Below are positions 8,243 to 64,000 of a stretch of DNA of 64,000 nt, piece after piece. The stretch lies in contig NZ_JAQNDL010000001.1 of NCBI RefSeq assembly GCF_028368995.1, positions 2,208,001-2,272,000 of the forward strand, given 5' to 3'. A model generated the notes under the pieces. It ran no database searches, was not told the DNA's origin, and worked only from the letters and a program-made list of their open reading frames with translations. The stretch is from Nannocystis bainbridge. GTDB taxonomy: Bacteria; Myxococcota_A; Polyangia; Nannocystales; Nannocystaceae. Numbering within the stretch: the stretch's first letter is position 1; each line of letters opens with the position of its first letter. Position numbers and translations under genes: made by a program.

Positions 8243-9214
8243 TCAGGCCGCGCGACGGACCAGGTGGACCACCGCGAAGCGGGCCGCGTCGTCGGTCCAC
8301 GCCTGGGTCAGCGTCAGACCTGCGCTGGAGGACATGTCCGAAAAGCCATCCAGCGTATACTTGTGCGACAGCTCGGTCAGGATCGACTCGCGGGCGCGGA
8401 AGCTGAAGCTGCGGCCGCCGACCCCGACGACCTGGTCGATCTTGCTGACCAGGTGCATCTCGATGCGGCTGGCGGCCTCGTTGAACACGGCGCGGTGGGC
8501 GAAGCGGCCCGGCTGGAACTCACCGCCGAGCTCGCTGTTGATGCGGTGGAGCAGGTTGAGGTTGAACGCCGCGGTCACCAGGTCGCGGTCGTTGTAGGCG
8601 GCCTCGAGCACCGACTTCGACTTGACCAGGTCGATGCCGACCAGCGCGCCCTCGCAGCCGGGCGCGCGGGCGATGTTTCGCAGCAGCGCGGTCGCCTCGC
8701 TCGGGTCGAAGTTGCCGATCGTCGAGCCCGGGAAGTACACCAGGCTGCGGCCGAGCGCCCCGACCGGCAGGGCGAACGGGCGCGTGAAGTCGGCGTGCAG
8801 CGGCAGCACCTTGAGCTTCGGGTACTCGGCCTGGATCGCCGCGCTGGCGGCCAGCAGCGGCTTCTCCGACACGTCGACCGGCACGTACGCGGTCGCGTCG
8901 AGGTGGTCGAGCAGCAGCCGGGTCTTGATGCTCTCGCCGCTGCCGTACTCGACGATGATCCGGCGCGGGCCGACGGCGGCCGCCATCTCCATCGCGTGGT
9001 CGCCGAGGATCTCGATCTCCGCGCGGGTCAGGTAGTACTCCGGGGTCTCGCAGATCGCCTCGAACAGGTGCGAGCCGCGGGCGTCGTAGAAATACTTGGA
9101 GGGCAGGCGCTTGACCGGGCGCGACAGCCCCTCGATCACGTCGGCGAGGAACCCGTCGGCTGGCGCCTGCGTCGCCTCGTCATCGCGCGGGCGTTGGTGG
9201 AGCGGTCGCATCAT
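8243..9214 (-). CDS. egtD: L-histidine N-alpha-methyltransferase
   Basis: KRLPSKYFYDARGSHLFEAICETPEYYLTRAE, EYGSG, FPGSTIGNF, AYND..VTAAFNLN, RIEMHL, TELSHKY. ATG overlaps the egtB stop. Confidence 0.93.
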   Translation of the reverse strand: MMRPLHQRPRDDEATQAPADGFLADVIEGLSRPVKRLPSKYFYDARGSHLFEAICETPEYYLTRAEIEILGDHAMEMAAAVGPRRIIVEYGSGESIKTRLLLDHLDATAYVPVDVSEKPLLAASAAIQAEYPKLKVLPLHADFTRPFALPVGALGRSLVYFPGSTIGNFDPSEATALLRNIARAPGCEGALVGIDLVKSKSVLEAAYNDRDLVTAAFNLNLLHRINSELGGEFQPGRFAHRAVFNEAASRIEMHLVSKIDQVVGVGGRSFSFRARESILTELSHKYTLDGFSDMSSSAGLTLTQAWTDDAARFAVVHLVRRAA

Positions 9215-10449
9215 GCATCCTTGGTGAGACGGATCCCCGTGAACGGCCACCGCGCCCGGGGCGGAAAGAAATTGCGGTAGCTGGCACGCAAATGATCCCG
9301 CGGGGAAGCGCACGAACCGCCGCGCAGCACCATCTGGTTCGACATGAACTTGCCGTTGTATTCGCCGAGCGCGCCCGCCGGCGGGTGATAGCCGGGGTAC
9401 GGCAAGTACGCGCTCGCGGTCCACTCCCACACGTCGCCGAACAGCTGCGCCGGCCGGGGCTCGGCCTGCGGCGGCGCGTCCGCGACGGTCGGGTGGAGGC
9501 GGCCCGAATCGACGAAGTTACCGGCCACCGGCGCGCCCTCGGCCGCCGCTTCCCACTCGAACTCGGTCGGCAGGCGGGCGCCGGCCCAGCGGGCGAACGC
9601 GTCGGCCTCGTAGTGCGACACGTGGACCACCGGCGCGTGCGGGTCGAGCGGGCGCGGCCCGCCGAGCGTCATCTGCCACCATGTCCCCTGGGACATGTAC
9701 CAGTAGAGCGGCGCCGTCCAGCCCTCGGCCTGCGCCTGGGCCCAGCCGTCGGCCAGCCACAGCGTGCTGCGGCGGTAGCCGCCGTCGGCCACGAACTCCG
9801 CGTACTCCGCGTTGGTCACGCAGCGCGACGCCAGCGCGTGCGGCCGCAGCAGCGTCTGGTGGCGCGGGCCCTCGTTGTCGAAATGAAAGCCCGCGCCGGC
9901 GTTGCCCACCTCGCGCAACCCGCTCGGCCCCGGGCACCAGCGCAGCGGCGCCGCCGGTCGCGACGACGGCGGCGCCGCCTCCGCCCGCAGCCCCGGCCGC
10001 AGCGGGTTCTGGGCGTACAGGTGCAGCAGGTCCATCAGGATCAGCTCCTGGTGCTGCTGCTCGTGCTCGAGCCCGAGGCGGACCCGCTCGACCAGCCACG
10101 CCGGCCCGCCGCGGGCCAGCAGCTCGAGCATCGCCGCGTCGACGTGGGTCCGGTACTGCAGCACCTCGGCCCCGGTCGGCCGCGTCAGCAGCCCGCGGCG
10201 CGGCCGGCTGAACTGCGGGCCCACCGACTCGTAATACGAGTTGAAGAGGACCTCGAACTGCGGGTGAAACGGGCGGTAGCCGGGGTCGGCCGGGCCGAGC
10301 ACGAACGTCTCGAAGAACCACGTCGTGTGCGCCAGGTGCCACTTGGCCGGGCTCGCGTCCGGCATGCTCTGGACCGCGAGGTCCTCCGCGGGCAGCCCCG
10401 CGACCAGCCCCTCCGTGGCCGCGCGCACCCGGGCGTAGGCCGCCTCCAC
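9211..10449 (-). CDS. egtB: Ergothioneine biosynthesis sulfoxide synthase
   Basis: QSMPDASPAKWHLAHTTWFFETF, HEQQHQEL iron-binding His, FGE-type C-terminus (GDVWEWT, YNGKFM, RGGS). Confidence 0.93.
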   Translation of the reverse strand: MEAAYARVRAATEGLVAGLPAEDLAVQSMPDASPAKWHLAHTTWFFETFVLGPADPGYRPFHPQFEVLFNSYYESVGPQFSRPRRGLLTRPTGAEVLQYRTHVDAAMLELLARGGPAWLVERVRLGLEHEQQHQELILMDLLHLYAQNPLRPGLRAEAAPPSSRPAAPLRWCPGPSGLREVGNAGAGFHFDNEGPRHQTLLRPHALASRCVTNAEYAEFVADGGYRRSTLWLADGWAQAQAEGWTAPLYWYMSQGTWWQMTLGGPRPLDPHAPVVHVSHYEADAFARWAGARLPTEFEWEAAAEGAPVAGNFVDSGRLHPTVADAPPQAEPRPAQLFGDVWEWTASAYLPYPGYHPPAGALGEYNGKFMSNQMVLRGGSCASPRDHLRASYRNFFPPRARWPFTGIRLTKDA

Positions 10450-11427
10450 TCAGAACCTCCCGCCGAGCGCGACCCCGAAGCCCTGGCCCGAAGGACCTGC
10501 CCCCAGGTGCAGCTGACCGCGGCGGGCCGTCTTGCCCACGCCGGTGTCCTGCCGCTCGAGCGTCTTCAGCTCGGCGCGCGACGACAGGGCGTCGACCGCC
10601 ATGAACGCCGAGCCGGCCAGCCCGAGCCCGCCCGCCAGGCTGGTGACGCCGACGAAGCGCAGCGGCTCCTTGTCGCCGTACTGACCGATCAGCCACAGCG
10701 CGCTGAACACCGCCGCCCCGGCGTAGAGGGCGTAGCCGAGCCCGCGGGCCCACAGCTTGCCGCGCACGCGCAGGTCCCGGCCGGTGCTGGCGCCGCCGAT
10801 GGCGACGATCGGCGTGCCGAGCAGCGTCGTCGTCAGGCCGAGGCTGGCGTACATGAAGTGCTTCATGCCGTAGTCGCTCGGGTCGGTCTTGCCGGCGCGA
10901 CCGGCGTCGTAGAGCACGCCCATCAGCATGCCGACCGCCGAGAAGCCGACGCCGACGCCGGCGCCGACGCGGGCCCACTCCGACGGCGTCGACTCGCGGC
11001 CCTCGACGCACTCCCACGAGTTCTCGTGCACCGCCGTCACCGCCCCCAGCGGAGCCTGCTGCGCGCCGTTCTTCGGGTGCACGTAGTAGACCGCCGACTT
11101 GTCGGCGCGGGTCAGCGTCACGCACTCGCGCCCCGCGGTGCCGAGGATCACCAGCACCCGCCGCCCGGCCAGCCGCTGCCACTGCGCGTCGCTCACCGGC
11201 GCGGGGTAATAGCGCGGCATGTTGTCCGCGGCGGCCGGCGCCTCCGCGGCGGTCGCGTCACCGGCGACCGCGTGGTGGATCAGCGTGACATGACCTTCGG
11301 GCAAGGTCCGATCGGACATGTCCGAAGCGCCATCCACGATCACCGCCTCGGGCCCCTCGTAGCTGCGCAGGCCGGCGGGCGGGGTGAGGGCGAGCGACAC
11401 GACGGCGAGCGCGGCGAGCATGGCCAC
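10450..11427 (-). CDS. Hypothetical exported/membrane protein
   Basis: N-terminal signal peptide, several Gly-rich hydrophobic segments, C-terminal GVALGGRF. Tightly coupled between murF and egtB. Confidence 0.7.
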   Translation of the reverse strand: MAMLAALAVVSLALTPPAGLRSYEGPEAVIVDGASDMSDRTLPEGHVTLIHHAVAGDATAAEAPAAADNMPRYYPAPVSDAQWQRLAGRRVLVILGTAGRECVTLTRADKSAVYYVHPKNGAQQAPLGAVTAVHENSWECVEGRESTPSEWARVGAGVGVGFSAVGMLMGVLYDAGRAGKTDPSDYGMKHFMYASLGLTTTLLGTPIVAIGGASTGRDLRVRGKLWARGLGYALYAGAAVFSALWLIGQYGDKEPLRFVGVTSLAGGLGLAGSAFMAVDALSSRAELKTLERQDTGVGKTARRGQLHLGAGPSGQGFGVALGGRF

Positions 11428-11430
11428 AGT

Positions 11431-12834
11431 CTACACGGCCTTGGGCGGCGCCTGCAGCAGGGCCTCGACGACCCGCTCGAGCCGCATGCCGCGGCTGCCC
11501 TTGACCAGGAGGGCGCCCGGTCGCTCGGCGAAGGTGGCGCGGACGGCCGCGACGAGGTCGGAGACGCCGAGCCCGGCGTGCCATGACGCGATCCCGCCGG
11601 CCTTGGCCGCGTCGGCGGCCGCCTGCGACAGCGTGCCGAAGGTGAACAGCGCGTCGAGCCCCAGCGCCGCCGCCAGCCGGCCGACCTCCGCGTGCAGCTC
11701 CGGCCCGCGCTCGCCCAGCTCGAGCATGTCGCCGATGACCGCGGCCAGCGGACCCGGCCGTGACGGGCGCAGCGCGGCCAGGCTCTGCAGCGCCGCCGTG
11801 ACCGACCCGGGGTTGGCGTTGTAGTTGTCGGCGATCAGCAGGTGATGCTCGTCGAAGCGCAGCACCCGGCCGCGGTCGCCGACCGGCAGCACCCCTTCGA
11901 GCGCCTCGATCATCGGCCCGACCGGGCAGTTCAGGTGCAGCCCGACGGCCAGGGCCGCCGCCGCGTTGCGGGCGTTGTGGGCCCCGAACACCCGCAGGCT
12001 GAGGCGGATCTCCTCGACCTCGCCGCCGGGCAGGTGCAGCCGCAAGGTCGCGTGGGTGCGCTCGTCGAGCTCGACCCCGACGATCCGCACCGACGCCTCC
12101 GGACCTTCCCCGAAGGGCAGGATCGAAAGGCCAGGTGGGAAGTGCGGCGGCAGCAGCCGCTCGTCGTCGGGCACCACCGCGACCCCGCCGGGTCGGACGT
12201 GGCGCAGCGGCTCGGCCTCGGCGGCGGCGATCGCCTCGAGGCTGCCCATGAACTCGAGGTGCTCGAGCGCGACGCTGGTGATCACGGCGACGTCGGGGCG
12301 CACCAGCGCGGCCAGCCGCTCGTTCTCGCCGGGCGCGCTCATCCCCAGCTCGAGCACGATCGCCTCCGGGTGGTCCGGCCCGTTGAGCAGCGACAGCGGC
12401 ACCCCGAGGTGATTGTTGAGGTTGCCGCGGGTCGCCAGCACGCGCCCGTGGCGGCTGCGCAGCACCGCCTCGATCAGCGCGCGCGTGGTCGTCTTGCCGT
12501 TGCTGCCGGAGATCGCCACCACCGGCCCGCTGCAGGCCTCGCGGACCGCCCCGCCGAGCGCTGTCAGGGCCGCGAACGTGTCCTCGACCTCGACCACCGT
12601 GACCGTCGGATCGTCCGGCAGCGGACGCCCCGGCGCCTGCAGGATCGCCGCGGCGCCGGCCCGGATCGCGTCGGGGATGAACGCGTGGCCGTCGCGGGCG
12701 GCCACGATCGGCACGAACAGGCCGCCCGGCACGGGGTCGCGGCTGTCGACGAAGGCGCCGCGGATCTCCCGCGAACCGGCGCGGAGCAGCCGTCCGCCGG
12801 AGGTCGCGGCCAGGGTCTCGGGGGTGAAGTGCAC
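11431..12834 (-). CDS. murF: UDP-N-acetylmuramoyl-tripeptide--D-Ala-D-Ala ligase
   Basis: DSR, RDGHAF, ISGSNGKTTT, GNLNNHLGVPLSL, ELGMS, DNYNANP, GDMLELG, VKGSRGMRLE. Start approximate (GTG at 12834). Confidence 0.95.
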   Translation of the reverse strand: MHFTPETLAATSGGRLLRAGSREIRGAFVDSRDPVPGGLFVPIVAARDGHAFIPDAIRAGAAAILQAPGRPLPDDPTVTVVEVEDTFAALTALGGAVREACSGPVVAISGSNGKTTTRALIEAVLRSRHGRVLATRGNLNNHLGVPLSLLNGPDHPEAIVLELGMSAPGENERLAALVRPDVAVITSVALEHLEFMGSLEAIAAAEAEPLRHVRPGGVAVVPDDERLLPPHFPPGLSILPFGEGPEASVRIVGVELDERTHATLRLHLPGGEVEEIRLSLRVFGAHNARNAAAALAVGLHLNCPVGPMIEALEGVLPVGDRGRVLRFDEHHLLIADNYNANPGSVTAALQSLAALRPSRPGPLAAVIGDMLELGERGPELHAEVGRLAAALGLDALFTFGTLSQAAADAAKAGGIASWHAGLGVSDLVAAVRATFAERPGALLVKGSRGMRLERVVEALLQAPPKAV

Positions 12835-13202
12835 GAGGAGACCGTTAGCACCCCGACGCGGCCGCGCGCCACTCTTCGGCAGGGCCCGCCGCGGCGGCTG
12901 CGCAGCGGGTCGGCGGTGCAGCGCGGACACGGGGTGCCCGGGGGCCCGGGGACCGCGACGGGGCGAGCGTCCCCCGGTCGTTCGGCGCGGTCGCGGCGGG
13001 CGCCGACCGGCGTTTGTCCCATCACATGTCTTACGGGACATGTCCGATCGGACCTGTGATTGCGCGGCCCGGCGTTCGGCGGCCCCGCGCGCGGGCCCGG
13101 CTCGCGTTCGCCCGCGCCGATGCTCGCGCGTCGGCGCGCGCCTGCGTCGCAGCCGTCACGCGGGCGTGGCCGCGTCGACGCCGGGTCATGCTAGCCTCGT
13201 GG

Positions 13203-13727: not shown

Positions 13728-13728
13728 A

Positions 13729-13947
13729 GGTGTCCCGAGGGACAGGTCGCACCGGCCGGGCCCGGCGAACGCGGCGGCCGTCTCGGCGCAGGCCCGCCGC
13801 GCCTGCGCGCGGACCATTCACCGCATCCTGTCCCGAAGGCCAGGTCGCCGGCCGGGCCCGGCGAACGCGGTGCCCTCTCGGCGCAGGCCCGCCGCGCCCG
13901 CGTGCGCCGGGGCCATCCTCCACATCCTGTCCCGAAGGCCAGGTCGC
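13729..13947. repeat. About 98-bp tandem repeat (2 full copies plus 1 partial), each headed by the 14-bp palindrome
   Basis: tgtcccga(g/a)gg(ga/cc)caggtcgc..ccggccgggcccggcgaacgcgg..ctcggcgcaggcccgccgcgcc at about 13729 and 13827; partial copy at 13926. Confidence 0.8.
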
Positions 13948-13954
13948 TCTTGTC

Positions 13955-15437: not shown

Positions 15438-15483
15438 CATGGTCGAAACGACATGTCCAAAAGCACATGTACAAAAAATCATG
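15438..15483. repeat. Phased 14-bp array (4 CATG cores)
   Basis: CATG at 15438, 15452, 15466, 15480. Confidence 0.8.
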
Positions 15484-15676
15484 CCGATCGCGTCCCTCAG
15501 CCGCTCGCCGACGGCCAGCTCCTGGACGACGGACGTCGCACCGGGGGGCATCCGACCGCTCCTTCGATCACGAACGCCGCGACCCTCTCGCCAGAGCGCC
15601 GCGCTCGTGCGAATCGATCGCGCGGACTCGCACGAAACGCGCCCCAGGCCGGCTTGCGACGTGCGCTGGCTCAACT

Positions 15677-15705
15677 TTGACAGTGAAAATCAATTTCACT
15701 ATTAA
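15677..15705 (+). promoter_or_regulatory. Sigma70-type promoter with a Fur-box-like palindrome in the spacer
   Basis: TTGACA (15677-15682), 17-nt spacer GTGAAAATCAATTTCAC (7-1-7 Fur-like), TATTAA (15700-15705). ATG follows at 15715, so possibly leaderless. Confidence 0.7.
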
Positions 15706-16560: not shown

Positions 16561-16799
16561 GCGCGCTCGCGTGACCTCGCCGGCGCAGCGAGCCGCGCCA
16601 AGATCTGCGCGCGGCGCCTGCGAATCATCCGGACGCTGCGAAGGCGCCGCGACGTCGCGCGTGCGGCGTCGCGAAGTGCACCTCGTCTCATCGACGCGGC
16701 GCGTGCGTCGCCGTGGCTCGCGCTCTGCCGCATGCGCGCTCTGCTGGCGAGCTCACGCGGCGGCTCGTGCGTCCCTCTCGCGCCATTCCCCTGGCGCGC

Positions 16800-16985
16800 G
16801 AGCATCCCCGCGGCTCGCGTTCGGCCTCACGCGCAGCGGCTGCGCGTCCCGTTCACGCCTTCTCCTGACGCCCGAGCATCCCCGCGGCTCGCGTTCGGCC
16901 TCACGCGCGGCAACTCGTGCGTCCGGCTCACGCCATCCTCCTGCCGCGCGAGCATCCCCGCAGCTCGCGTTCGGCCTCACCCGCG
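16800..16985. repeat. REP-like repeat, 3 copies with about 75-bp period
   Basis: gagcatccccgc(g/a)gctcgcgttcggcctcac at about 16800, 16874 and 16950. Confidence 0.8.
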
Positions 16986-17242
16986 GCGGCTCGCTGTCCC
17001 GCTCACGCCATGCACGTGGCGCTCGTCGCTCGCAGCTTCTGGACCCCACGCGCGTGGCCGTGACACCCGTGACATCTCACCGACGTCGTCGTCTCGGGTT
17101 GCGAGCAGCCTCGCGAATGCGCCTCCGACGTCGAGGCCGTCGGCGCGAACGAGTTCACGGCCGTGTCACGATTCTGAATGTCAAAATCCACATGAAGTGG
17201 CGCAAATAGCCTGAGAATTCTCTCCCCGAGCCCGGCACGTTT

Positions 17243-20833: not shown

Positions 20834-22600
20834 GTGAACCCCGGCGAGACCTCCGAGTGGCAGGACCACGCCCGCCTGGCCGGCCGGCGCCGGCTGGCGC
20901 AGGCGATCGGCGAGCTCAGCTTCGAGGGGCTGCTGCACCCGCGTCCGCTCGGCGACGACCGCTGGGCGCTCGATCTGTCCGATGGGACATGTTATTCGTT
21001 CACAGGGCGGCCGAGCGCGTGGGGCGGGCTGCACGTCGAGGCCGACGGCATCACCCGCCGCGAAGGCGACGGCGACGAGCAACCGGCCGCCTCGCCGGTG
21101 CAGCTGATCCTCGACGCCCGGGCCGCGCTCGGGGTCGGCGCCGACGCGCTGGCCGAGTTCCTCGAGGAGCTCCACAACAGCCTGCTGGCCGAGACGGAGC
21201 AGTGCGCGCGCCTGGCCGAGCTGCGCGCGCCGCAGCTGGCCGCGCTGTCGGGCGCCGCGCTCGAGCAGCACCTCGACGGCCACCCCAAGCTGGTGGCGCA
21301 CCGCGGCCGCGTCGGCTGGGGCGTCGCCGATCTCGCAGCCTACGCGCCCGAGTCCGCCAGCCGCGTGCAGCTGCACTGGCTCGTCGTCGCGCCCGAGCTG
21401 GCCCGCTGCAGCGGCGCCGCCGGTCCGGGCCAGCTGCAGTTGGTCGACGAGAGCTGCGACGCCGAGGCCCGGGCCCGCCTGCTCGAGCAGCTGCACGCGC
21501 GCGCCCCCGGGCTCGCGCGCGGCGGCGTGCTGGTGCCGGTGCACCCGTGGCAATGGCAGCACCACCTGGCCGCCCAGTATATCGACGCGCTGACGCGCGG
21601 CGCGATCGTCTCGCTCGGCCGCTTCGGCGACGCCTACGCGCCGCGCCTCTCGATCCGCACCCTCGCCGACGCTTCGCGACCCGAGCGCGCCGACGTCAAG
21701 CTGGCGCTGACGATCCTCAACACCTCGTGCTGGCGCGGCCTGCCCGGCGAGCACATCGAGCAGGGCGTCGGCATCGGCGCGGCGCTGCGGCGGCGCGTCG
21801 CCGGCGATCCTCTGCTGCACGGCGTGCACGTGCTCGCCGACCTCGGCGGCGTGCACGTGCCGCAGCCCGAGTTCGAGGCCCTCGGCGCCGCGCCCTACCG
21901 CCTGCGCGAGCAGCTGGGGGCGCTGTGGCGCGAGAGCGCGACGGCTCGCCTCGGCGCCGACGAGCGCGAGGTCGCGGCCGCGGCGCTGCAGCAGACCGAC
22001 CTCCGCGGCGAGCCGCTGCTGCGCACATGGGTCGAGCAGAGCGGCGCCTCGATCACGGCGTGGTTGACCGCGCTGTTCGAGCGCACCGCGGCGCCGCTCT
22101 ATCACTTGCTGTGCCGCCACGGCATCGGCGTGATCGCCCACGGGCAGAACCTCGGGCTGGTGCTGCGCGCGGGAATGCCGACGGCGATCCTGCTGCGCGA
22201 CGTGCACGGCGACGTGCGCCGGGTGGCCGACGACCGCTTCGATCACGAGCCGGCGCTGCGCGGGCTCAAGGCGCTGCCGGCCGGCCAGATCGTGCACGAC
22301 CTCTACACCGGCTATTTCGTCAGCGTGCTGCGGTTCGTCGCGCCGCTGTGCGAGCGCAGCTTCGGCCTGCCGGAGCGCGAGTTCCTGCGGCTGCTGTCCG
22401 CGGTGCTCGCCGCCTACTGTGATTCGGTGCCGCACGAGGCGACGGCGCGCTTCGATCTGTTCCGTCCGGAGATGGAGCGGATCTGCCTCAACCGCGCCCG
22501 TCTGCGGATCGGCCACGGCGGCGGCGCCACGCGCCCGCTGCCCGCGCTCGGTCCGCCGCTGCATAACCCGTTGGTGAGGGAGGTGGACGATGAACGATGA
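20834..22600 (+). CDS. iucC: IucC-type NIS siderophore synthetase
   Basis: DGHPKLVAHRGRVGW, VPVHPWQW, SIRTL, VKLALTILNTSCWRGLP, LWRES, IAHGQN, ICLNR. Confidence 0.9.
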   Translation: MNPGETSEWQDHARLAGRRRLAQAIGELSFEGLLHPRPLGDDRWALDLSDGTCYSFTGRPSAWGGLHVEADGITRREGDGDEQPAASPVQLILDARAALGVGADALAEFLEELHNSLLAETEQCARLAELRAPQLAALSGAALEQHLDGHPKLVAHRGRVGWGVADLAAYAPESASRVQLHWLVVAPELARCSGAAGPGQLQLVDESCDAEARARLLEQLHARAPGLARGGVLVPVHPWQWQHHLAAQYIDALTRGAIVSLGRFGDAYAPRLSIRTLADASRPERADVKLALTILNTSCWRGLPGEHIEQGVGIGAALRRRVAGDPLLHGVHVLADLGGVHVPQPEFEALGAAPYRLREQLGALWRESATARLGADEREVAAAALQQTDLRGEPLLRTWVEQSGASITAWLTALFERTAAPLYHLLCRHGIGVIAHGQNLGLVLRAGMPTAILLRDVHGDVRRVADDRFDHEPALRGLKALPAGQIVHDLYTGYFVSVLRFVAPLCERSFGLPEREFLRLLSAVLAAYCDSVPHEATARFDLFRPEMERICLNRARLRIGHGGGATRPLPALGPPLHNPLVREVDDER

Positions 22601-25729: not shown

Positions 25730-25867
25730 GCGCCGGCGCCGAAATCCATCGCTCACGCCTCGACATCGGCCGTGAGCGCTGGCGATCGCCGTCCCGTCTG
25801 AGCGCCGGCGGCGAAATCCATCGCTGCACGCCTCGACATCGACGCCCGCGAGCGCTGGCGATCGCCG
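25717..25867. repeat. Direct repeat, 2 copies of about 71-78 bp
   Basis: ccgtcccg(c/t)ctgagcgccggcg.cgaaatccatcgct..acgcctcgacatcg..gagcgctggcgatcgccg occurs twice. Confidence 0.8.
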
Positions 25868-26029: not shown

Positions 26030-27154
<1,125 letters not shown>

Positions 27155-30056: not shown

Positions 30057-31469
30057 TCAGGACATGCTCGGAGAGACAGGTACTCGCGGGCGCCCGGGGA
30101 ACATCGCTTCGACCTCGCGCGCGACCGCCAGCACCCGATCCTCGCGGCCGAGCGGGCCGACCAGCTGGACCGCGATCGGCAGGCCCTCGCGGGAGCTCGC
30201 CACCGGCAGCGCCACCGCCGGCTGACCGGTGACGTTGAACGGCGCCGTGAACGCCCCGTAGACCGCGTAGGCGCGGAACACCGCCTCGCCGTCGGGTCCG
30301 CGCCACGCCCCGATCGGCGGCGGAGGTCCCACCACTGCGGGCGTCAGCACCAACTCGGCGTCACCGACCCACGCCAGCACCCGCTCGCGCAGCGCCTCGA
30401 ACGCCGCGTGGGCCAGCGCCGGCGAGTTGCGGCGACCGGCCTCGACGAGCCAGCGCGTCGCCGGCTGCAGCCGGTCCGCCCGCACCCACGGCACCTCGGA
30501 CAGGAGGCGCTGGTAGATCGGCAAGAAATCGTCGACCGACCCCCGCGCCATCTCGACCTCCTCGACGCGGTGGCCCGCGCCGGCGAGCGCCTCGCCGACG
30601 GACCGCGTCGCCGCGGCCCACTCTGGCGCGGCGGCGGCCAGCGGCGAGTCGACCGCCAGCTTGATCCGCAGGCGCGGCGACGGCTCCAGCATCTGTCCGT
30701 AAGGACATGGCGGAGGGGACAGCCAGTGCGGCCGCCCGACGGTGAGCCCGGCCATCACGTCGAGCAGCGCCGTCGCGTCGGCGACCGAGCGCGCCAGCGG
30801 CCCGCAGGTGTAGAGCAGCGTGCGGTCGTCGCGACCGAACGCGTTGGCGACCCGCCCGCGCGACGGCTTGAGGCCGACGAGGCCGCAGAACGCGGAGGGG
30901 ATCCGGATCGAGCCGGCGCCGTCGCTGCCCTGGGCCCACGGCAGCAGGCCAGCGGCGACCGCCGCGCCCGAGCCCCCGCTCGAGCCGCCGGCCGTGCGCG
31001 CCGGGTCCCACGGGTTGCGCGTCGGCGGGTGCGTGTCAGGCTCCGTCACCGGCAGCGCCCCGAGCTCCGACGTCGCCAGCTTGCCGAGCACCACGAGGCC
31101 CGCCGCGCGCAGCTTGGCCACCGTCGCGTCGTCGATCGGCGAGTACAGCGGCAGCACCCCGCGCGAGCCCATGCGGGTCCGCGAGCCGCGGACGAAATTG
31201 AGGTCCTTGACGCCGATCGGCACCCCGAGCAGGGGCGGGACCGAGTCGAGCGCGCCGCGCCGCGCCGCGCGGTCGAGCGCATCGTCGGCGGCCCGGGCCG
31301 CTCGCCGCGCCCGCGCGTCGAACACCGACACGAAGGCCGACAGCGCGGGGTTGTGCGCGGCGATACGGTCCAGGTACAGCGCGACGAGCTCCTGGCTGCG
31401 GATCTCGCGGCGCCGCAACAGGCGCGCCTGTTCCAGGCCAGACACGTGGAGGAGCTCGGCGAGCGACAT
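30057..31469 (-). CDS. Amidase signature family enzyme
   Basis: GVPIGVKDL, TRNPW..RTAGGSSGGSGAAVAAG, GSDGAGSIRIPS, GLKPSRGRV, FTAPFNVTGQPA. Confidence 0.92.
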   Translation of the reverse strand: MSLAELLHVSGLEQARLLRRREIRSQELVALYLDRIAAHNPALSAFVSVFDARARRAARAADDALDRAARRGALDSVPPLLGVPIGVKDLNFVRGSRTRMGSRGVLPLYSPIDDATVAKLRAAGLVVLGKLATSELGALPVTEPDTHPPTRNPWDPARTAGGSSGGSGAAVAAGLLPWAQGSDGAGSIRIPSAFCGLVGLKPSRGRVANAFGRDDRTLLYTCGPLARSVADATALLDVMAGLTVGRPHWLSPPPCPYGQMLEPSPRLRIKLAVDSPLAAAAPEWAAATRSVGEALAGAGHRVEEVEMARGSVDDFLPIYQRLLSEVPWVRADRLQPATRWLVEAGRRNSPALAHAAFEALRERVLAWVGDAELVLTPAVVGPPPPIGAWRGPDGEAVFRAYAVYGAFTAPFNVTGQPAVALPVASSREGLPIAVQLVGPLGREDRVLAVAREVEAMFPGRPRVPVSPSMS

Positions 31470-31894: not shown

Positions 31895-33505
31895 TCACTT
31901 GCCGCGGGTCAGGTGCAGGCGGACCACCTGCAGCGTCGCCGTGAAGCCGCCGCAGCTGTCGCCCGCGCACACCTGCCACGCGCCCGGGGCCGCCGAGCCG
32001 GCCAGGCTCGCCAGATCGGGCCCGACCGCCGCGCCCGGGTTCGGCGTGTAGCTGCAGGCGCCGTCGTCCTCGCAGATCACGCCGTCGGTGCCGAGGCCGT
32101 CGCCCATCAGCTCCGCGTCCTTCGGGCCCGCGAGGCTGAACATCAGCGGCGCCGTCGCGGCGAGGTTGGAGCTGTCACCGCTGCAGCCCGAGCCGTCGTC
32201 GGTCGCCTCGGCGAGGCCCGGGCGGCTGACCAGCGTCACCGTCTCCGCCGCCGGCGACAGCAGCTTGATCGTCAGGTCGCCCGCGTAGCCGGTGTCGATC
32301 CCGACCTCGACCTCCACCCCCGCGACCACGTCGAACTCCGACGGCGGCACCATCAGCGTCGCGCAGGCCATCGTCGCCGGCGTGCCGTCGTAAGCCCCGT
32401 CCGCGAGCGCCATGCCGAGGTCGACCTCGGCGAACACCTCGACCTCGGTCGCGCCGGGGCAGTCCTCCGGATCGACCACCATCTCCGGGCACAGCGGCTC
32501 GAGCGCCTTCTGCAGCGCCGCCGCGTCCTTGTCGTCAGCCTCGGTCAGCGCCGCGCCGAGGTGCCCCAGCATCGCCACGAAGTCCGCCGAAGTGATCGGC
32601 GCCCCGCCCAGCATCTCGTTGCTGACCCCCATGTGCGCCGGCTGCATCGCCCGACACGGCGCCGCCGCGCTCACCCCCGGCTCGACGCCCGCCGGCGCAT
32701 CGACCTCGGAGCCGTAGACCGCCGGCCCGTCGACGTCCGCCAGCTGCCTCACGAGACATGTCCCAAGGCGCACGTCGTCGACCCCGGCGAAGAACCCCGA
32801 CAGCGCCGCGTCGCCCGTCACGCTCGCCAGCCACGCGCCCGTCACCGCCTGCAGCCCCGGCTTGCGACCGAGGCGCTGGTACAGCGTCGCGTCGTCGCCG
32901 GGATCCTCGACCACCTCGCCGGCCAGCGCCGTCAGCGAGTCGAGCAGCGCCGCCCGGTCGGCCTCGGTCAGCTCCTGGCCCGGCCCGGCCTGGTGGGCGT
33001 CGAGCGCCGTCGCCACGTCGGCCACGAAGTCGGCGAAATCGATCGCCGACACCCCGAGCCCCGCGTGGGCCGACTGCATGCCCTTGCACGTGTAGGTCGC
33101 GCCCGGGCAGCCCGCGAGCGTCGCCAGTTGGTCGACCAGGCAGCCGAGGAAGCGGCCGCCGTCGAACTCCGCGTTGAGGAAATAGGCGTTGATGCGGTCG
33201 TCGGCGACCACCTGGCCGGCGATCGCCACCGCCAGCGCCTCGGCCCCGTCCGGCCCGCCGAGGCGCGTGCAAAGCCCGTCGTCGATCGGCCCGGTGGTCG
33301 TCCCGACCGTCGGCTCGCCCGTGCTCGTCTCGCTCGTGACCGTGCCGGTGCTCGTCGTCAGCGGCGGCGTCGTCGTCGAAGCCGTGGTCTCACCGCCGGT
33401 CGTCGCCTCGCTCGAGGTCGTCGGCTGCCCGGTCGGCTGGGCCACGTCGTCGGCGCAGCCGGCGGCCAGCGCGAGTGCGAGGGCGAGCCCAGGCTTGGTC
33501 CGCAT
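31895..33505 (-). CDS. Lipoprotein with two group-1 truncated globin domains and a C-terminal proprotein-convertase P-domain-like module
   Basis: Lipobox LAAGC; domain 1 LCTRLGG..ADDRINAYF..MQSAHAGLGVS..DF; domain 2 LYQRLG..GFF..MQPAH..ITSADF; C-terminal VEVGIDTGYAGDLTIKLLSP..GAWQV. Confidence 0.8.
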   Translation of the reverse strand: MRTKPGLALALALAAGCADDVAQPTGQPTTSSEATTGGETTASTTTPPLTTSTGTVTSETSTGEPTVGTTTGPIDDGLCTRLGGPDGAEALAVAIAGQVVADDRINAYFLNAEFDGGRFLGCLVDQLATLAGCPGATYTCKGMQSAHAGLGVSAIDFADFVADVATALDAHQAGPGQELTEADRAALLDSLTALAGEVVEDPGDDATLYQRLGRKPGLQAVTGAWLASVTGDAALSGFFAGVDDVRLGTCLVRQLADVDGPAVYGSEVDAPAGVEPGVSAAAPCRAMQPAHMGVSNEMLGGAPITSADFVAMLGHLGAALTEADDKDAAALQKALEPLCPEMVVDPEDCPGATEVEVFAEVDLGMALADGAYDGTPATMACATLMVPPSEFDVVAGVEVEVGIDTGYAGDLTIKLLSPAAETVTLVSRPGLAEATDDGSGCSGDSSNLAATAPLMFSLAGPKDAELMGDGLGTDGVICEDDGACSYTPNPGAAVGPDLASLAGSAAPGAWQVCAGDSCGGFTATLQVVRLHLTRGK

Positions 33506-34694: not shown

Positions 34695-34968
34695 CCTGTC
34701 CGAACGGACATGCCCCGAACCCGCGGCCGCCACACTCGTGCAATGGGACACACGTCCCGCGAGACATGGGCTCGCCCGCGCGGCCTCGTGCATCTTGCTC
34801 TCGGGACATGTCCCATTCGCCATGTTTTTTAAGACTTCCGCAGCATCGACGACATGTCCTTCACGACATGTCCATTCTGCCATCTGACCGCACTCCTGCC
34901 TCGTGCCGCCCCGCGACGCGACCCCGGAGCGCACCGCCTGTCCCGAGGCACATGTCCCAAACGCCAGA
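34695..34968. repeat. Cluster of five short 14-bp-phased arrays in a divergent promoter region
   Basis: Cores at 34695/34709, 34737/34751/34765, 34807/34821, 34853/34867/34881, 34937/34951/34965. Perfect TGTCCGAACGGACA at 34697. Confidence 0.85.
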
Positions 34969-43856: not shown

Positions 43857-44440
43857 CAGACCGGCTCCTTCTGGGCCACACCCTGGCGGTATCGCACCAG
43901 CTTGATCGCCACCAGCCCGTTCTCCTCCTGCACCTCGAGCGCGTCGAGCGGCCGCGGCGACGGCCCGGCCTCGACCGCGCCGTCGAGCGCGAACGCCGAG
44001 CGGTGGCACGGGCACTTGAACTTCTGCGCCTCGGGGTCGTAGTCGACCGCGCAGCCGAGGTGCGGGCACACCGTCGAGAACGCCTGCAGCGCCCCGTCGC
44101 GCTCGAGCACCCAGCACGAGCCCAGCTTCACGTCGGGCGTCTTGTTCCACGCGTCGACCTTGTCGGCGTGGAGCTCGACCCGCACCGGCACCGAACCGGC
44201 GAACGCCGAGCGCTTGCCCGCTGGCAAGAACGCCCCCTCGCCGCCCTTCGACCCGGTCGGGAACAGCAGATAACCGACCGCCGGCACCACCGGCACCGCC
44301 GCCAGCCCCAACCCCAATGCCCCGATCCCCAGCTTCAACACCCCGCGACGGCCGGCGTCCGGCTCCCCTCCTGACCCAGAGGACATGTCCCGAGATTCAG
44401 CTTCGTGCTCCGCTCCGTGACCGCGTTCTCGGCTCGACAT
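43856..44440 (-). CDS. Rieske [2Fe-2S] subunit
   Basis: Tat motif RRGVLK, CPHLGC, CPCHRS, GPSPRPL. Alternative start ATG at 44386. Confidence 0.92.
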   Translation of the reverse strand: MSSRERGHGAEHEAESRDMSSGSGGEPDAGRRGVLKLGIGALGLGLAAVPVVPAVGYLLFPTGSKGGEGAFLPAGKRSAFAGSVPVRVELHADKVDAWNKTPDVKLGSCWVLERDGALQAFSTVCPHLGCAVDYDPEAQKFKCPCHRSAFALDGAVEAGPSPRPLDALEVQEENGLVAIKLVRYRQGVAQKEPV

Positions 44441-51775: not shown

Positions 51776-52726
51776 TCATCGTTCCGCTCCACGCCCGAGC
51801 TGCTCGCGCGCCGCCACCAATCGTGCCACCGCCGCGTGCGTCGGCGCGGACAGCCCGTGCCGCTCCGCCAGCCGGGCCACCGCCCCATTTAAAAAGGCCA
51901 TCTCCGTCGCCGCCCCGCGCCGCAGGTCTTGCAGCATCGCGTTGTCGTTCGCGCGCGTCTTCTCGGTCGACGTGAACACGCGCCCCAGGTCCTCGTCGCG
52001 CAGCGTCACCCCCTCCGCGGCCGCCACCACCCGCGCCTCCGCCAGCAACGTCCCGGCCAGCGCCCGCAGCTCGGGCACGTCGAGGATCGCCCCGTTGGCC
52101 GCGCCGAGCAGCGCACACGGCCCGCTGACCGCCAGGTTCCACAGCGACTTGCGCCACTCGCACGCCGCGATCGACGTCGCCACCGTCACCGGGTAACCCG
52201 CGCCCGCCAGCAGGCCTTGCATTTCGGACATGTGCGAACAGGCAGGTTCGTCGTCGGCCGCCAGCTCGAGCTGGAACACCCCGGCCACGCGCACCGTCGT
52301 CGGCCCCGTCAGCCCCGCCCCGAGCCAGCAGGCTACCCGCACCAGCGCCGCCCCGGCCAGCCGCTCGCGGGCGAGCCCCGCGATCCCGAGCCCGTTCTGA
52401 CACAGCCCGATCGCCTGCCCCGGCCTCACCCGCGACCGCAAAGCATCGAGCGTCTCGCCCAGCTGCGTCGCCTTGACCGCGACCAGCACGATCGCCTCCG
52501 CCGGCACCGTCCACGCCCCCGCGAAATCGACCACCGGCACCCGCGCCTGCCGCTCCTCCGCCCCTGTCAGCGCGAACCCCTCGCTGTTCAGCGTCACCAC
52601 CCGCGGCCCGCGAGCGACCAGCGTCACCGCGGCCACCTCGCTCAGCCGCGCCGCCAGGTGCAGGCCGACTGCACCGGCGCCGAAGATCCAGATCGCTCGA
52701 GGAGGGGTCGCGCTCGTGAGCTGCAC
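51776..52726 (-). CDS. panE: Ketopantoate reductase family protein (PanE/ApbA)
   Basis: GAGAVG, VAVKA, QNGLG, WRK..WN, AMLQDLRRG.ATEMAFLNG. Confidence 0.8.
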   Translation of the reverse strand: MQLTSATPPRAIWIFGAGAVGLHLAARLSEVAAVTLVARGPRVVTLNSEGFALTGAEERQARVPVVDFAGAWTVPAEAIVLVAVKATQLGETLDALRSRVRPGQAIGLCQNGLGIAGLARERLAGAALVRVACWLGAGLTGPTTVRVAGVFQLELAADDEPACSHMSEMQGLLAGAGYPVTVATSIAACEWRKSLWNLAVSGPCALLGAANGAILDVPELRALAGTLLAEARVVAAAEGVTLRDEDLGRVFTSTEKTRANDNAMLQDLRRGAATEMAFLNGAVARLAERHGLSAPTHAAVARLVAAREQLGRGAER

Positions 52727-53730: not shown

Positions 53731-53868
53731 CGGCGCCGCATCCTAGCACGACCGCCGGCGGGCCTGTCTGGGCCCGCCACCGCCCCGGCGAGCCCTCCGA
53801 GCCCCGTCCTGCGCGCCGGCGAGCCCCCGCGCGCCCTCGCCCCGCTCGCCCGGGCGAGGCCCGAAGGC

Positions 53869-54147
53869 CATGTCCCTCGAGACACATCATCTCCCGCGCA
53901 GTCGGGGCGATGACTCGAAGAATTATCCCTCGCCCTACCATACACATGTCCCCGAGACCATGTCTCGAAGGACATGTCATCCTACCCCCTCCTCACCCCG
54001 CGCACCCCATGCCCCTTGCGACCTGGGACGTTGGCGACGCGCCCGACGTCGCGAATCACATGTCCCATGCGACATGTGATTCGGACCGACACCCACGTCT
54101 CCACCTCCCAAAGTACATGTCCTTCGCGACATGTCCCGAGAAACATC
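53869..54147. repeat. Cluster of 14-bp-phased arrays
   Basis: Cores at 53945/53959/53973, 54008/54022, 54059/54073, 54116/54130/54144, plus 53869. Confidence 0.85.
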
Positions 54148-54148
54148 A

Positions 54149-57634
<3,486 letters not shown>

Positions 57635-57704
57635 CGCCAGGCGAGTGCTGGTTGTCGCGAGTTTGATCGGTGAAAAACGCCGACTTTGGCGCGCGCGATC
57701 TCGC

Positions 57705-58361: not shown

Positions 58362-58371
58362 GCGACGATCA

Positions 58372-59859: not shown

Positions 59860-59861
59860 CC

Positions 59862-60515
59862 TCACTCCCGCCGCAGCACCGCGCAGCTGACCTGGTACGG
59901 GCGCGTCAGCCAGCGCAGCCGCGAGCCCGCGGTCCCGCTCGGGCTGTCCCGAAGGCCAGCCAGCTTGCGGAGGTCGCGGACCAGCAGCCACGGCCGGCGC
60001 AGCAGCTCGGGCGCGTAGCTCGGCCCGTCGACGACCTCGGCGCGGACCCGGCGCAGCTGCGGGAACAGCTCGCGTGACATGTCCTCGGGGTCAGGTCGAT
60101 AGTACGTGTCGATCGGGTCCGGGTGGTACGGGTAGCTGAACGGCACCGTGACGATCAGCAGCCCGCCGGCGGGCACCAGCGCCGCCAGCCCGCGGGCCAG
60201 CGCCGCGCGGTCGGTCACGTGCTCGAGCATGTTGCAGCACAGGATCGCCCGCGCCCCGACCGCCTGCAGCCGCGCGTGCCCCTCCGGGCTCAGCGCGTCC
60301 GCGGCGATGTCGACCCCTGGCAGCTGCTTCAGGTCGCTGTGCACCACCTCGGCCCCGCGGGCCCGCAGCGGCGCGAACACCTCGCGGTCGATCCACGGCT
60401 GCACGGCTGTCCTGAAGTGCAGGTCACTGCTGCCGAGGTTGAGCAGCGGCGTCAGCTCCGCGTCGCCCAGCTCCTGCAGCCGCGCCCGCAGCCACCGCGC
60501 CTCGACCTCAAGCAC
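59862..60515 (-). CDS. Class I SAM-dependent methyltransferase (glycan tailoring)
   Basis: LNLGS, GVDIAADA, CCNMLEHV, GGLLIVTVPFSYPYHPDPID. Confidence 0.8.
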   Translation of the reverse strand: MLEVEARWLRARLQELGDAELTPLLNLGSSDLHFRTAVQPWIDREVFAPLRARGAEVVHSDLKQLPGVDIAADALSPEGHARLQAVGARAILCCNMLEHVTDRAALARGLAALVPAGGLLIVTVPFSYPYHPDPIDTYYRPDPEDMSRELFPQLRRVRAEVVDGPSYAPELLRRPWLLVRDLRKLAGLRDSPSGTAGSRLRWLTRPYQVSCAVLRRE

Positions 60516-61344
60516 GGACCTGCTCCTCGGGCCAGCTCGCCACCGACTCGAGCCCGCCGGCCAGCGCGATCTCGGCGACGAAGCCGAGCCGCTCCTTCGC
60601 GCGGGTCGGGTCGAGCACGTAGCGCATCACCTCGCTGCCGCGGTACGGCAGCGCACCGAGGTCGACCAGCTCGGTGCGACCGACGCGCCACGCCAGCGCG
60701 CGCACCACCATCGCCACCGCCGACTCGATCCCCGTGCCCGCGTTGTAGACCCCGACCGGCGCGTCGGCCTCGGTGCAGCGCGCCAGCAGGCGGGCCACGT
60801 CGCGCACGTGCACGAAATCGCGGGTCTGCTCGCCGGGCGTGCACGCGAACCGCTCGCCGGCCCGCAGCGCCGCCAGCAGCGACGGGATCAGCATCCCTGG
60901 CCGCTGACCGGGCCCGTAGACCACCCCGGGCCGCACGATCACCGCCTCGATCCCCAGCCTCGCCGCCGCCGCGCGCACCTCGTCCTCGCCGCGGATCTTC
61001 GCCCGCGCGTACGGCGTGTCGCCGAGCCGCTGCGCGTCCTCGACGAACGGCACCGGCTGCAGCCCGTACACCTCGCCCGAGCTGACGTAGACCACCCGCC
61101 GGGCCCCGCGGGCCGCCGCGATCGCCAGCGCCCGCAGCGGCGCCGCCACGTGCGCTTCAGTCAACGCCGCCTCGCCGCCCTCGCGGCCGCCGCCGGCCCA
61201 GATCAGCGCATGAACTTCAGGACATGTCCGTTCCGCCAGGCCCTCGCGGCCGAACGCGACCACCGGCGCCGCCGCCAACGCGTCCGCCGCGGCGCGGCCG
61301 ATGAAGCCCCCGCCGCCGCCGATCGCCACGGCGGTGACCGTCAC
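60508..61344 (-). CDS. NAD-dependent epimerase/dehydratase
   Basis: [35 protein letters not shown]. Confidence 0.87.
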
Positions 61345-62318: not shown

Positions 62319-62319
62319 A

Positions 62320-63093
62320 TTACCAATTCCTCCACGGCGCCGCGCCGCCGGCCCACGCGCGCTCGAGCAGCTGCAGGTCGCGATAGGTGTCCATGCACTG
62401 CCAGAAGCCCTCGTGCCGGTGCACGCGCAGTTGGTCGTCGGCGGCCAGCCGCTCGAGCGGCTCGCGCTCGAGCGTGCAGGCGTCGTCGTCGCGCACGTAC
62501 TCGAGCATCGCCTTGCGGAACACGAAGAAGCCGCCGTTGATCCACCCCTCGGTGACCGCCGGCTTCTCGCTGAAGCTGTCGACGCGCTCGCCGTCGGTCA
62601 GCAGCTCGCCGAAGCGGCTCTGCGGCCGCACCCCGGTGACCGTCCCGATCTTGCCGTGGCTGCGGTGGTACGCCAGCAGCGCCTTGAGGTCGACGTCGCA
62701 CAGCCCGTCGCCGTACGTCAGCATGAAGTCGTCCTCGCCGAGGTGGCGGCCGACCCGGTGCAGCCGCGCCCCGGTCATCGCCTCCTCGCCGGTGTCGACG
62801 CAGGTCACTCGCCAGCGCGCCTCGGGCGGGTTGTGCAGCGTCAGCTTGCCGCCCTGCCCGAGGTCGACCGTGAAGTCGCCCGACAGCGCCGCGAAGTCGA
62901 GGAAGTAGCGCTTGATCACCTCGGCCCGGTAGCCGAGGCACAGCACGAAGTCGTCGAACCCGTGCGACGCGTAGTAGCTCATGATGTGCCAGAGGATCGG
63001 TCGCCCCGCGACCTCGATCATCGGCTTGGGACGCAGCTCCGTCTGCTCTTTGAAGCGGGTCCCCTTGCCCCCGCACAGGATGACGACCTTCAT
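62320..63093 (-). CDS. rfbF: Glucose-1-phosphate cytidylyltransferase
   Basis: [53 protein letters not shown]. Confidence 0.93.
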
Positions 63094-64000
63094 CGCGACC
63101 TCCCCAGGACCTCGTCGTAAACCGCCTGGAGGCGCTCGCGGTGGGCCTCCACGCTGTATTCTGCCTGCATCTTGCGCCGCCCGGCCTCGCCGAGGGCGCG
63201 CCGCTCGTCTGTACTTCGGGACAGGCGCACCAGGTGCCCCGCCAGCCCGGCGACGTCGCGCTCGCCCGCGAGCAGCCCCGTGACCTCGTGCTCGACCTGC
63301 TCCGGGATCCCCGCGTGCCGCGTCGCCACGATCGGCAACTCCGCCGCCGAGCCCTCGCAGATCACCGTCGGCGTGCCCTCCTGGTCGCCGTCGCGGGCCG
63401 TCCGGCTCGGCACCAGCAGCACGTCCGCGTCCTGCATGGCCGCAGGCACCGCCGTCGCCGGCGCCGCCCACGTCACGTCGAGCCGCAGCGACTCGGCCAG
63501 CGCGCGCAGCGGCCCGGCCCCCGCCGAACCTGTCCCAAGGAGCATGACCTCGAGGTCAGCCCCAGCCGCACGCGCTGCGGCGCACGCTCGCAAGCCATCA
63601 TCAAAACCCTTCTTCTCGACCTCGCGCCCGACCATCAGCACCCGCGTGCGCGCCCGCGTGGCCCGCGGCGCCGGCTGGAACCGCGACAGGTCGACGCCGA
63701 GCGGCACCACGCGGATCTTGCTCGCGGGGCAGCCCTGGGCCACCAGTTGGTCGCGCATGTGCTGCGACAGCGCGAGGAAGCGGTCGCCGCGGCGGAACAG
63801 CGCCGGCGCCAGCGCGGCGAAGTGCCAGTAGGCCGGCAACAGCCGCAGCCGCGAGCCGCGGACCGTCACGTCCTTGCCGTAGAAGCTGGTCACCAGCGGC
63901 AGCCCGCAGCGGGCCGCTGTCAGCAGCGCGTGCGCCCCCGTCTGCCCGAGGTGCGCGTGGATCAGCGACACCCCGCGGGCCCACCGCGACAGCCGCGGCG
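63090..64000 (-). CDS. GT4 glycosyltransferase (5' end outside window)
   Basis: IHAHLG, VGREVEKKG, PSRTARDGDQEGTPTVICEG, ATRHAGIPE. Confidence 0.88.
   Translation of the reverse strand, partial: PRLSRWARGVSLIHAHLGQTGAHALLTAARCGLPLVTSFYGKDVTVRGSRLRLLPAYWHFAALAPALFRRGDRFLALSQHMRDQLVAQGCPASKIRVVPLGVDLSRFQPAPRATRARTRVLMVGREVEKKGFDDGLRACAAARAAGADLEVMLLGTGSAGAGPLRALAESLRLDVTWAAPATAVPAAMQDADVLLVPSRTARDGDQEGTPTVICEGSAAELPIVATRHAGIPEQVEHEVTGLLAGERDVAGLAGHLVRLSRSTDERRALGEAGRRKMQAEYSVEAHRERLQAVYDEVLGRSR

Follow-up and report, generated by a model that had tools for sequence, protein, structure and literature searches.

We analyzed one 64-kb window of the genome of Nannocystis bainbridge (contig NZ_JAQNDL010000001.1, positions 2,208,001 to 2,272,000), which carries, among others, egtD, egtB, murF, panE, an IucA/IucC-family gene (iucC), an amidase gene and a Ser/Thr kinase gene, and in which a 14-bp palindromic motif recurs both between genes and inside them. 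The window has a G+C content of 72.5%, and about 95% of its third codon positions are G or C. Coding sequences (CDS) were mapped by a home-made codon-score gene calling and checked against Pfam; their starts are approximate and mostly lie too far downstream, and the true start of the kinase gene, at 57634, is upstream of the codon-score call. The closest protein relatives of the window genes were found in Nannocystis species. The IucC-family protein shares 91% identity with its counterpart in N. punicea, the product of the open reading frame (ORF) at 10450 shares 88% with that of Nannocystis sp. RBIL2 and 86% with that of N. exedens, and residues 560-1102 in the gene call of the kinase, the C-terminal part used for the search, share 73% with their N. 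pusilla counterpart. Conservation in relatives was judged from protein sequences alone.

Laying out the arrays in 14-nt rows and inspecting their ends revealed that the repeating unit is the palindrome TGTCC-N4-GGACA. Where two such units abut, their junction gives the GGACATGTCC core, and the same abutment creates the 14-bp phase that a preliminary description of the window had reported. CATG-to-CATG spacings of 14, 28, 42 and 56 nt occurred 20, 10, 6 and 5 times, respectively, while any other distance up to 60 nt occurred 0 to 4 times. In its extended form the unit reads C(A/C)TGTCC-N4-GGACA(T/G)G, adjacent sites sharing the central CATG. Immediately 5' of TGTCC, 44 of 97 units have an A and as many have a C; A is found within arrays (A-TGTCC-N4-GGACA-T) and C before isolated units (C-TGTCC-N4-GGACA-G). 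The information profile revealed conserved half-sites of 5-7 bp around a nearly free 4-bp centre. Spacers vary from copy to copy, CGAA or TTCG being present in 10 of the 97 units. Over three abutting units (42 bp), the helix makes about four turns.

We observed 43 units with no more than one mismatch in the window, compared to 1.76 +/- 1.25 expected from dinucleotide-preserving shuffles, none of which reached 43 (0/100). This is an excess of about 24-fold and a density of 0.67 near-perfect units per kb, or about one every 1.5 kb. As a negative control we used 80 loci from other bacteria (1.42 Mb), obtained through an EgtB scan of a genome collection. These contained 22 units with no more than one mismatch (0.015 per kb), none of them perfect, and no phased pair of cores; one of the 22 sits in a Polyangiaceae locus (L045). 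Therefore, the motif is lineage-specific. A search of the literature returned nothing relevant on the motif, either in Nannocystis or among bacterial operators, and the sole match to the 10-bp core, the p53 response element, was taken as a coincidence.

The preliminary description had proposed that this motif is overprinted on protein-coding sequence beyond what the encoded amino acids account for, and our results bear this out. CDS contained 14 units with no more than one mismatch, compared to 1.67 +/- 1.17 in synonymous shuffles (0/500 reached 14), an excess of about 8-fold at the synonymous level, and 1.28 after codon permutation. Four CDS units were perfect, compared to 0.04 in synonymous shuffles (0/500 reached this number). 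Eight scrambled palindromes of equal composition yielded 0 to 3 CDS units each. Furthermore, when two abutting units were scored together against TGTCC-N4-GGACA (two-unit score, maximum 20), 11 of 52,439 CDS positions scored at least 15 vs 1.03 expected, and 8 scored at least 16 vs 0.15 expected, with none of 300 synonymous shuffles reaching either count. Nine of these 11 positions, including two in ORF 10450, are sites that the preliminary description had listed. Junction cores scored with a position-weight matrix were likewise in excess in CDS (14 vs 5.1 at scores of at least 12, 8 vs 1.2 at scores of at least 14; 0/300 shuffles), and the excess remained after the first 150 nt of every gene were trimmed off. 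In the half-sites flanking the 14 strong intragenic cores, 5.5 of 10 bases matched at an offset of 14, compared to 1.4-3.3 at the other offsets between 8 and 21. The positions of intragenic sites were not significantly skewed toward either end of the gene (n = 20; Mann-Whitney p = 0.57 for starts and 0.12 for stops).

Codon usage is locally disturbed at these sites. Of the codons located 6-21 nt from a core centre, 21% have A or T in third position and 25% are rare, compared to 4.4% and 5.3% elsewhere, and at 22-35 nt the fraction is back to 3.3%. Therefore, the motif leaves in genes a sharp-edged footprint of about 42 bp. In-frame G+C content at third codon positions (GC3) was 0.80-1.00 on both flanks of 24 of the 25 sites examined, the 25th lying at the amidase stop where there is no downstream flank; given these high values on the measured flanks, the sites examined lie inside coding sequence. 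GC3 dips to 0.50-0.93 at the intragenic sites themselves, with 14307 (GC3 of 1.00 at the site) as the sole exception. The breakdown of third-position bias reported earlier was thus recovered, and the iucC codons quoted as its example are present, as are the recurrent peptides GTC (2 sites), RTCP, DMS (4 sites) and GHV. The suggestion that ACA codons concentrate in the motif also held in the 64-kb window: units touch 1.46% of codons and account for 12 of 26 ACA, 9 of 31 CCT and 14 of 97 TCC codons, meaning that nearly half of the CDS ACA codons in the window exist because of the motif.

Near-perfect CDS units occur 7, 6 and 1 times in the three reading frames and encode different peptides, the rarest frame being the one that requires TGT and GGA. 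The kinase gene carries three sites. All eight orthologues share the residues encoded there, and it is rare synonymous codons (GGA CAT; GCT, CGA, AGG and TCC; TCC, CAA and ACA) that spell out the motif. Because all three frames are used, because the excess persists over synonymous shuffles, and because rare synonymous codons are found on conserved kinase residues, the constraint acts on DNA and not on the peptide. We also considered the in-frame insertion of a mobile repeat, as three units of 14 nt make 42 nt or 14 codons. Alignments to solved homologues (3a2p for the amidase) were free of indels at the three sites aligned (egtD, egtB and amidase), which rules out this candidate and indicates that the motif was overprinted on existing sequence rather than inserted. 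Elements of the Rickettsia palindromic element type are repeats inserted in frame; the motif differs from them in showing no gap relative to homologues at these three sites.

Comparison with homologues suggests that the persistence of motif-encoded residues across species is mixed. The egtD site falls on variable residues in the alignment to the solved EgtD, and the egtD, iucC and amidase sites all fall on residues that differ among the homologues compared. At the egtB site, GTW is conserved and its Thr is read from the rare codon ACA. ORF 10450, the product of which looks secreted, carries its site in an N-terminal linker that is otherwise hypervariable, and DMS and TLPEG recur there in many Nannocystis homologues. 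In the first unit of iucC, the encoded Leu-Ser-x-x-Thr is kept in 4 of the 5 closest relatives, P0003 having Ala instead of Ser.

Between genes the motif is about tenfold denser, with 29 near-perfect units in 10.65 kb of intergenic DNA vs 14 in 53.3 kb of CDS, and arrays of at least four units are exclusively intergenic, intragenic sites consisting of one to three units. Units are carried by 4 of 7 divergent, 2 of 5 convergent and 3 of 16 co-directional gaps. Hence, of the earlier claim that selection acts on the DNA regardless of gene position, the first half is supported and the second is not. That the motif is not purely a promoter element is supported by the units found in convergent gaps, which include the largest array, and at mid-gene positions. 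Pfam scans of the window revealed no evident shared function among the genes that flank arrays. In three array regions, promoter and terminator scans were uninformative, detecting no promoter-like site for sigma-70 and 0-1 terminator-like sites for intrinsic terminators, about the level of shuffled sequence.

Table 1. Motif sites within or next to genes and intergenic arrays of the window. Units are given as matches out of 10 to TGTCC-N4-GGACA; the preliminary description had located each unit by its CATG.
Site	Position	Gene or context (strand)	Units	Two-unit score	GC3 at site (flanks)	Remarks
egtD	8321..8348	8243-9214 (minus), 91 nt before stop	8+8	16	0.73 (0.97, 0.91)	Peptide ..GFSDMSSS..
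egtB	9682..9709	9211-10449 (minus)	10+6	16		Perfect unit and junction core
ORF 10450	11291..11332	10450-11427 (minus)	7, 9, 8	17	0.60 (1.00, 0.95)	Three-unit site
murF	12106..12133	11431-12834 (minus)	7+6	13	dip to 0.67	Weak, degenerate
iucC	20976..21003	IucA/IucC-family gene 20834-22600 (plus)	10+3	13		Perfect unit and junction core (ACA TGT TAT)
Amidase	30694..30721	30057-31469 (minus)	10+8	18		Top two-unit score among CDS positions; rare codons CCT, CCA, TGT, CCT, GGA
ORF 31895-33505	32745..32772	31895-33505 (minus)	7+8	15		Peptide ..LGTCL..; rare ACA, TGT
Rieske	44372..44399	Probable start codon, divergent gap	9+7	16		
panE	52217..52244	51776-52726 (minus)	7+7	14	0.67 (0.97, 0.95)	
Kinase, two units	54949..54976	Ser/Thr kinase with beta-propeller 54149-57634 (minus)	9+8	17		Peptide CLWGHGRGDIF
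Kinase, single unit	55414..55427	54149-57634 (minus)	10			Peptide VRTDRS; absent from the preliminary description
Kinase domain, single unit	56990..57003	54149-57634 (minus)	9			Peptide LSQET; absent from the preliminary description
Epimerase-like gene	61211..61238	60508-61344 (minus)	8+8	16	0.53 (1.00, 0.95)	Peptide ..ERTCPEVH..
Glycosyltransferase	63531..63558	63090-63971 (minus)	8+8	16		
Intergenic array	2534..2617	Downstream of GTP cyclohydrolase II gene, upstream of ORF 2674-3093				6 units
Single units in longer tandem repeat	5364..5787	Intergenic				8 single units, repeat period about 64 bp
Largest array (array B)	6406..6503	Between convergent gene ends				7 units; higher-order palindrome
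Intergenic array	13027..13054	Divergent gap murF / HNH gene				ATCACA / TGTGAT end variants
Intergenic array	15440..15488	Divergent gap				3-4 units
Array cluster	34697..34966	767-bp divergent gap				Parts in phase across 84 and 98 bp
Four arrays	53857..54145	418-bp gap, kinase stop to start of GIDE-domain gene				

Eleven of the 12 sites that had been listed as intragenic are truly so (Table 1). Among these, murF is weak, since 39 of 52,439 CDS positions reach its two-unit score of at least 13, and only one of the two units of iucC matches the motif. The twelfth, the Rieske site, lies probably at a start codon in a divergent gap and not within CDS, because the ATG of its core (44386-44384) precedes the twin-arginine motif GRRGVLKLG and because A or T is frequent at the third positions of the codons before it. 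Start codons within motif cores as a general rule were dropped, the case being convincing just for Rieske and perhaps for 36896-37663 and 44439. Two gene names also needed revision. The 'epimerase' site exists and belongs to a second, shorter epimerase-like gene (60508-61344), and the globin label given to ORF 31895-33505 did not stand, since Pfam gave no globin domain there, just a weak match to a proprotein-convertase P-domain (E = 4.5e-5). The alignment of the epimerase/dehydratase-like product to solved homologues starts only at residue 65 of the product (chain residue 113), and its match to Pfam Epimerase only at position 85 of the profile. This gene seemingly lacks the usual N-terminal nucleotide-binding part, and the motif site falls in that unaligned N-terminal stretch.

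Several other features of the intergenic DNA were observed. Variant half-site ends, ATCACA...TGTGAT in place of GGACA...TGTCC, are found at 13020-13061, 53940-53953 and 54054-54081, where they form palindromes of 28-42 bp with distinct ends. The tandem repeats at 5364-5787 (about 64 bp) and 13731-13947 (about 99 bp) carry one or two single units in each repeat. Four further tandem repeats, at 3131-3320 (53 bp), 16756-17011 (76 bp), 23883-23985 (39 bp) and 25715-25867 (72 bp), are free of the motif.

Among the neighbouring genes, cell-wall and division genes coding for a MraW-family methylase, two Mur ligases and a MraY-like transferase are scattered at 3-833, 11431-12834, 26030-27154 and 27420-28712. 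They form no single block and are interleaved with the ergothioneine pair (egtB and egtD) and with an IucA/IucC siderophore cluster. EgtB (9211-10449, minus) is of the same type as the solved EgtB of Chloracidobacterium (E = 1e-145); in the genome collection, its best matches listed share at most 60% identity and come from other phyla and classes (Burkholderiales, Sphingomonas and Acidobacteria), with no close relative among the matches listed. A guanidine-III riboswitch (Rfam RF01763, 64.2 bits) was detected at 6866-6929 on the minus strand, directly 5' of a small-multidrug-resistance family gene (6511-6849), with which it likely forms a guanidinium exporter unit.

How the unit is read was approached through its symmetry. 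Of 136 mirrored positions that deviate, both sides were changed in 7, and Watson-Crick pairing was kept in 4. No compensatory change was found within units, indicating that pairing is not preserved. Given the conserved half-sites, the free centre and these one-sided, uncompensated deviations, we therefore read the units as sites of a dimeric DNA-binding protein. The explanation that we favor, and that we consider somewhat more probable than all others together, is that the motif is the binding-site family of an abundant, sequence-specific, putative dimeric protein acting globally or architecturally. A symmetric dimer would read the duplex unit and bind cooperatively along arrays, and its role would be global, as a nucleoid-associated protein or the regulator of a very large regulon, rather than tied to particular promoters. 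Within genes, point changes and the choice of codons would have turned existing coding sequence into one to three units, and these would be held there against the very strong G/C third-position bias of the genome.

The anatomy of the unit is that of an operator. Compared by site sequence alone, it has the same geometry as the operators of helix-turn-helix dimers of the CviR and PadR types and shares several bases with them. The CviR box (LuxR type) is given as CTGNCCNNNNGGNCAG, a 16-bp palindrome, in the available text of PMC12114271, and isolated units fit it; within arrays, the outer C and G become A and T. Conversely, in-array units fit the ATGT-N8-ACAT inverted repeat given for a PadR-type operator in the accessible part of PMC4517056, while isolated units have C before TGTCC. 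Unlike either operator, the motif occurs at about one site per 1.5 kb and is tandemly abutted. Operators of the CviR and PadR types serve few promoters each and do not abut in tandem. Head-to-tail palindromes without spacing are found in the met-boxes of MetJ, where every box binds one dimer and adjacent dimers are in contact. The arrays described here share this abutment; met-boxes differ in their period of 8 bp instead of 14 bp and in their small regulon, and the present motif differs in being overprinted on genes.

Several observations weigh against a global DNA-binding protein. Pfam revealed no transcription-factor domain in the window besides an extracytoplasmic function (ECF) sigma factor, several ORFs having no Pfam match. 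A density of one near-perfect unit per 1.5 kb, if genome-wide, is far above that of an ordinary regulon. Arrays lie at convergent gene ends, the largest one included, and sites are not significantly concentrated at gene starts. The Cys encoded at the iucC junction is replaced by Ser or Phe in the nearest relatives, as judged by protein comparison, so that some copies turn over. Finally, two arrays exhibit higher-order hairpin symmetry: array B, for which 0 of 300 unit shuffles folded as well, and array F2, for which 2.7% did.

The motif could alternatively be an operator of the ordinary kind, recognized by a single transcription factor that governs a large regulon, with functional arrays at promoters and weak, incidental or decoy copies inside genes, an explanation that we regard as unlikely. 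The share of divergent gaps that carry units is consistent with it, as are the positions of the longest clusters (34697-34966 and 53857-54145) upstream of genes and the overlap of the Rieske site with a start codon. It also has a myxobacterial precedent in MrpC, a CRP-family protein of Myxococcus xanthus with the site TGTYN8RAC, for which the available text describes 1608 chromatin immunoprecipitation sequencing (ChIP-seq) sites, of which 549 fall outside promoter regions (PMC4320627). Both sites come from the same phylum and are built of a palindromic half-site of the TGTC/GACA type. However, the half-sites of the present motif are 2 bp closer (TGTY-N6-RACA), and abutting 14-bp arrays are not reported for MrpC in the part of PMC4320627 available. 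Furthermore, copies that exceed synonymous shuffles by 8- to 100-fold and use rare codons are not incidental, the largest array is located between convergent gene ends, and the neighbouring genes have no evident function in common.

A self-recognition or uptake-type signal, or a motif spread by molecular drive through biased uptake, recombination or repair, would place copies wherever proteins tolerate them, with no function at each site. To the motif itself, HIP1 and DNA uptake sequences are the closest known phenomena. HIP1 (Highly Iterated Palindrome 1, GCGATCGC) of cyanobacteria is described in the available text of PMC5861425 as a lineage-specific palindrome over-represented 15- to 300-fold within and between ORFs, thought to be maintained by selection, with a proposed role in chromosome or nucleoid organization and without a known reader. 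The motif shares with HIP1 its strong over-representation as a short palindrome, in and between ORFs, above codon-level expectation. In contrast to the solid 8-mer of HIP1, it spans 14-18 bp with a degenerate 4-bp centre, has another sequence than GCGATCGC, occurs in phase-locked tandem arrays, is tenfold denser between genes and belongs to the phylum Myxococcota. A periodicity of 10-90 kb along the chromosome is a further trait of HIP1-like palindromes; the DNA covered here spans 64 kb. Uptake sequences (USS of Pasteurellaceae, DUS of Neisseria) occur hundreds to thousands of times, with 34.5-65% of the copies in ORFs, and according to the accessible part of the source they are overprinted on CDS, make particular peptides more frequent and prefer poorly conserved residues and preferred codons (PMC2817400). 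The abundance of the motif, about 0.67 copies per kb both in and between genes, would suit such a signal. So would the fact that the homologues compared differ at the residues of the egtD, iucC and amidase sites and that the ORF 10450 site falls in a hypervariable linker, a pattern of the kind that the same text reports for uptake sequences (PMC2817400), and the turnover of the iucC copy between close relatives. We nevertheless consider this explanation improbable. Uptake sequences are oriented, non-palindromic words that stand singly or in inverted pairs, with neither a degenerate centre nor head-to-tail arrays, and the present motif is a palindrome arrayed in up to 7 units. It is mostly intergenic, at tenfold the density found in genes, and inside genes it goes with rare codons instead of the preferred codons described for uptake sequences in the available text of PMC2817400. 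Thus, the motif differs from HIP1 and from uptake sequences in its operator-like anatomy, its phase-locked 14-bp arrays and its use of rare rather than preferred codons.

A structured nucleic-acid element, either RNA or single-stranded DNA hairpins or a REP/REPIN-like repeat acting in termination, in mRNA stability or as a transposase-like substrate, would account for the ability of each unit to form a stem of 5-6 bp with a 4-nt loop. It would also fit the CGAA or TTCG spacers found in about a tenth of the units. Array B, at convergent 3' ends, folds at -72.5 kcal/mol (z = -8.8), and 5 of the 7 stretches folded were matched by no more than 2 of 200 shuffles. However, when the same units were shuffled, 18 of 20 arrays folded no better than their shuffled counterparts, arrays B and F2 being those that did. 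Summed over all arrays, the energy was -258.5 kcal/mol vs -241.7 +/- 20.2 for shuffled units, a difference that is not significant as 22% of shuffles were as good. Together with the lack of compensatory change within units, with spacers that differ between copies unlike those of recently copied repeats, and with an occurrence in genes without indels, this makes such an element a poor candidate. REP/REPIN sequences are strictly extragenic, with a maintained hairpin and an associated RAYT transposase. In contrast, the present motif is also found inside genes and shows no compensatory change, Pfam scans of the window revealed no transposase domain, and no Rfam family matched at the arrays. In the 7-unit array at 6406-6503, units 3-4 mirror units 5-6, including the spacers and one deviating base; this array may double as a hairpin or may have grown by inverted duplication. 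Lastly, an artefact of amino-acid or codon context, through recurrent peptides or chance, would agree with the use of the cheap frame NNC ATG TCN by 8 of the 14 junction cores, but is scarcely credible given that shuffles keeping the peptide and codon permutation yield so few units, that all frames are used and that the same motif forms non-coding arrays.

Regarding the role of the motif, the preliminary description had proposed chromosome architecture or DNA marking. By analogy with the proposal made for HIP1, such a role is possible, and our data do not separate it from global transcriptional control. More tentatively, and with less confidence than we place in the binding protein itself, Nannocystis may carry a previously undescribed genome-wide DNA code. 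This code would comprise thousands of 14-bp units, phase-locked in intergenic arrays, forced into CDS against a 95% G/C third-position bias and read by a putative protein that polymerises in a 14-bp register. It could form a sequence-specific nucleoid-organising or self-marking system, HIP1-like in function with an operator-like site.

To our knowledge, few hyper-abundant motifs are written across genes, and for most of them no reader is known; HIP1 has been studied for decades without one being identified. The operator anatomy of this one, with its conserved half-sites, free centre and seemingly cooperative arrays, means that a short duplex could be used as bait for its reader. In annotating this genome, local rare-codon clusters are to be taken as marks of the motif and not of frameshifts or foreign DNA. 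The motif also gauges the conflict of two forces, a DNA signal overriding one of the most extreme codon biases known.

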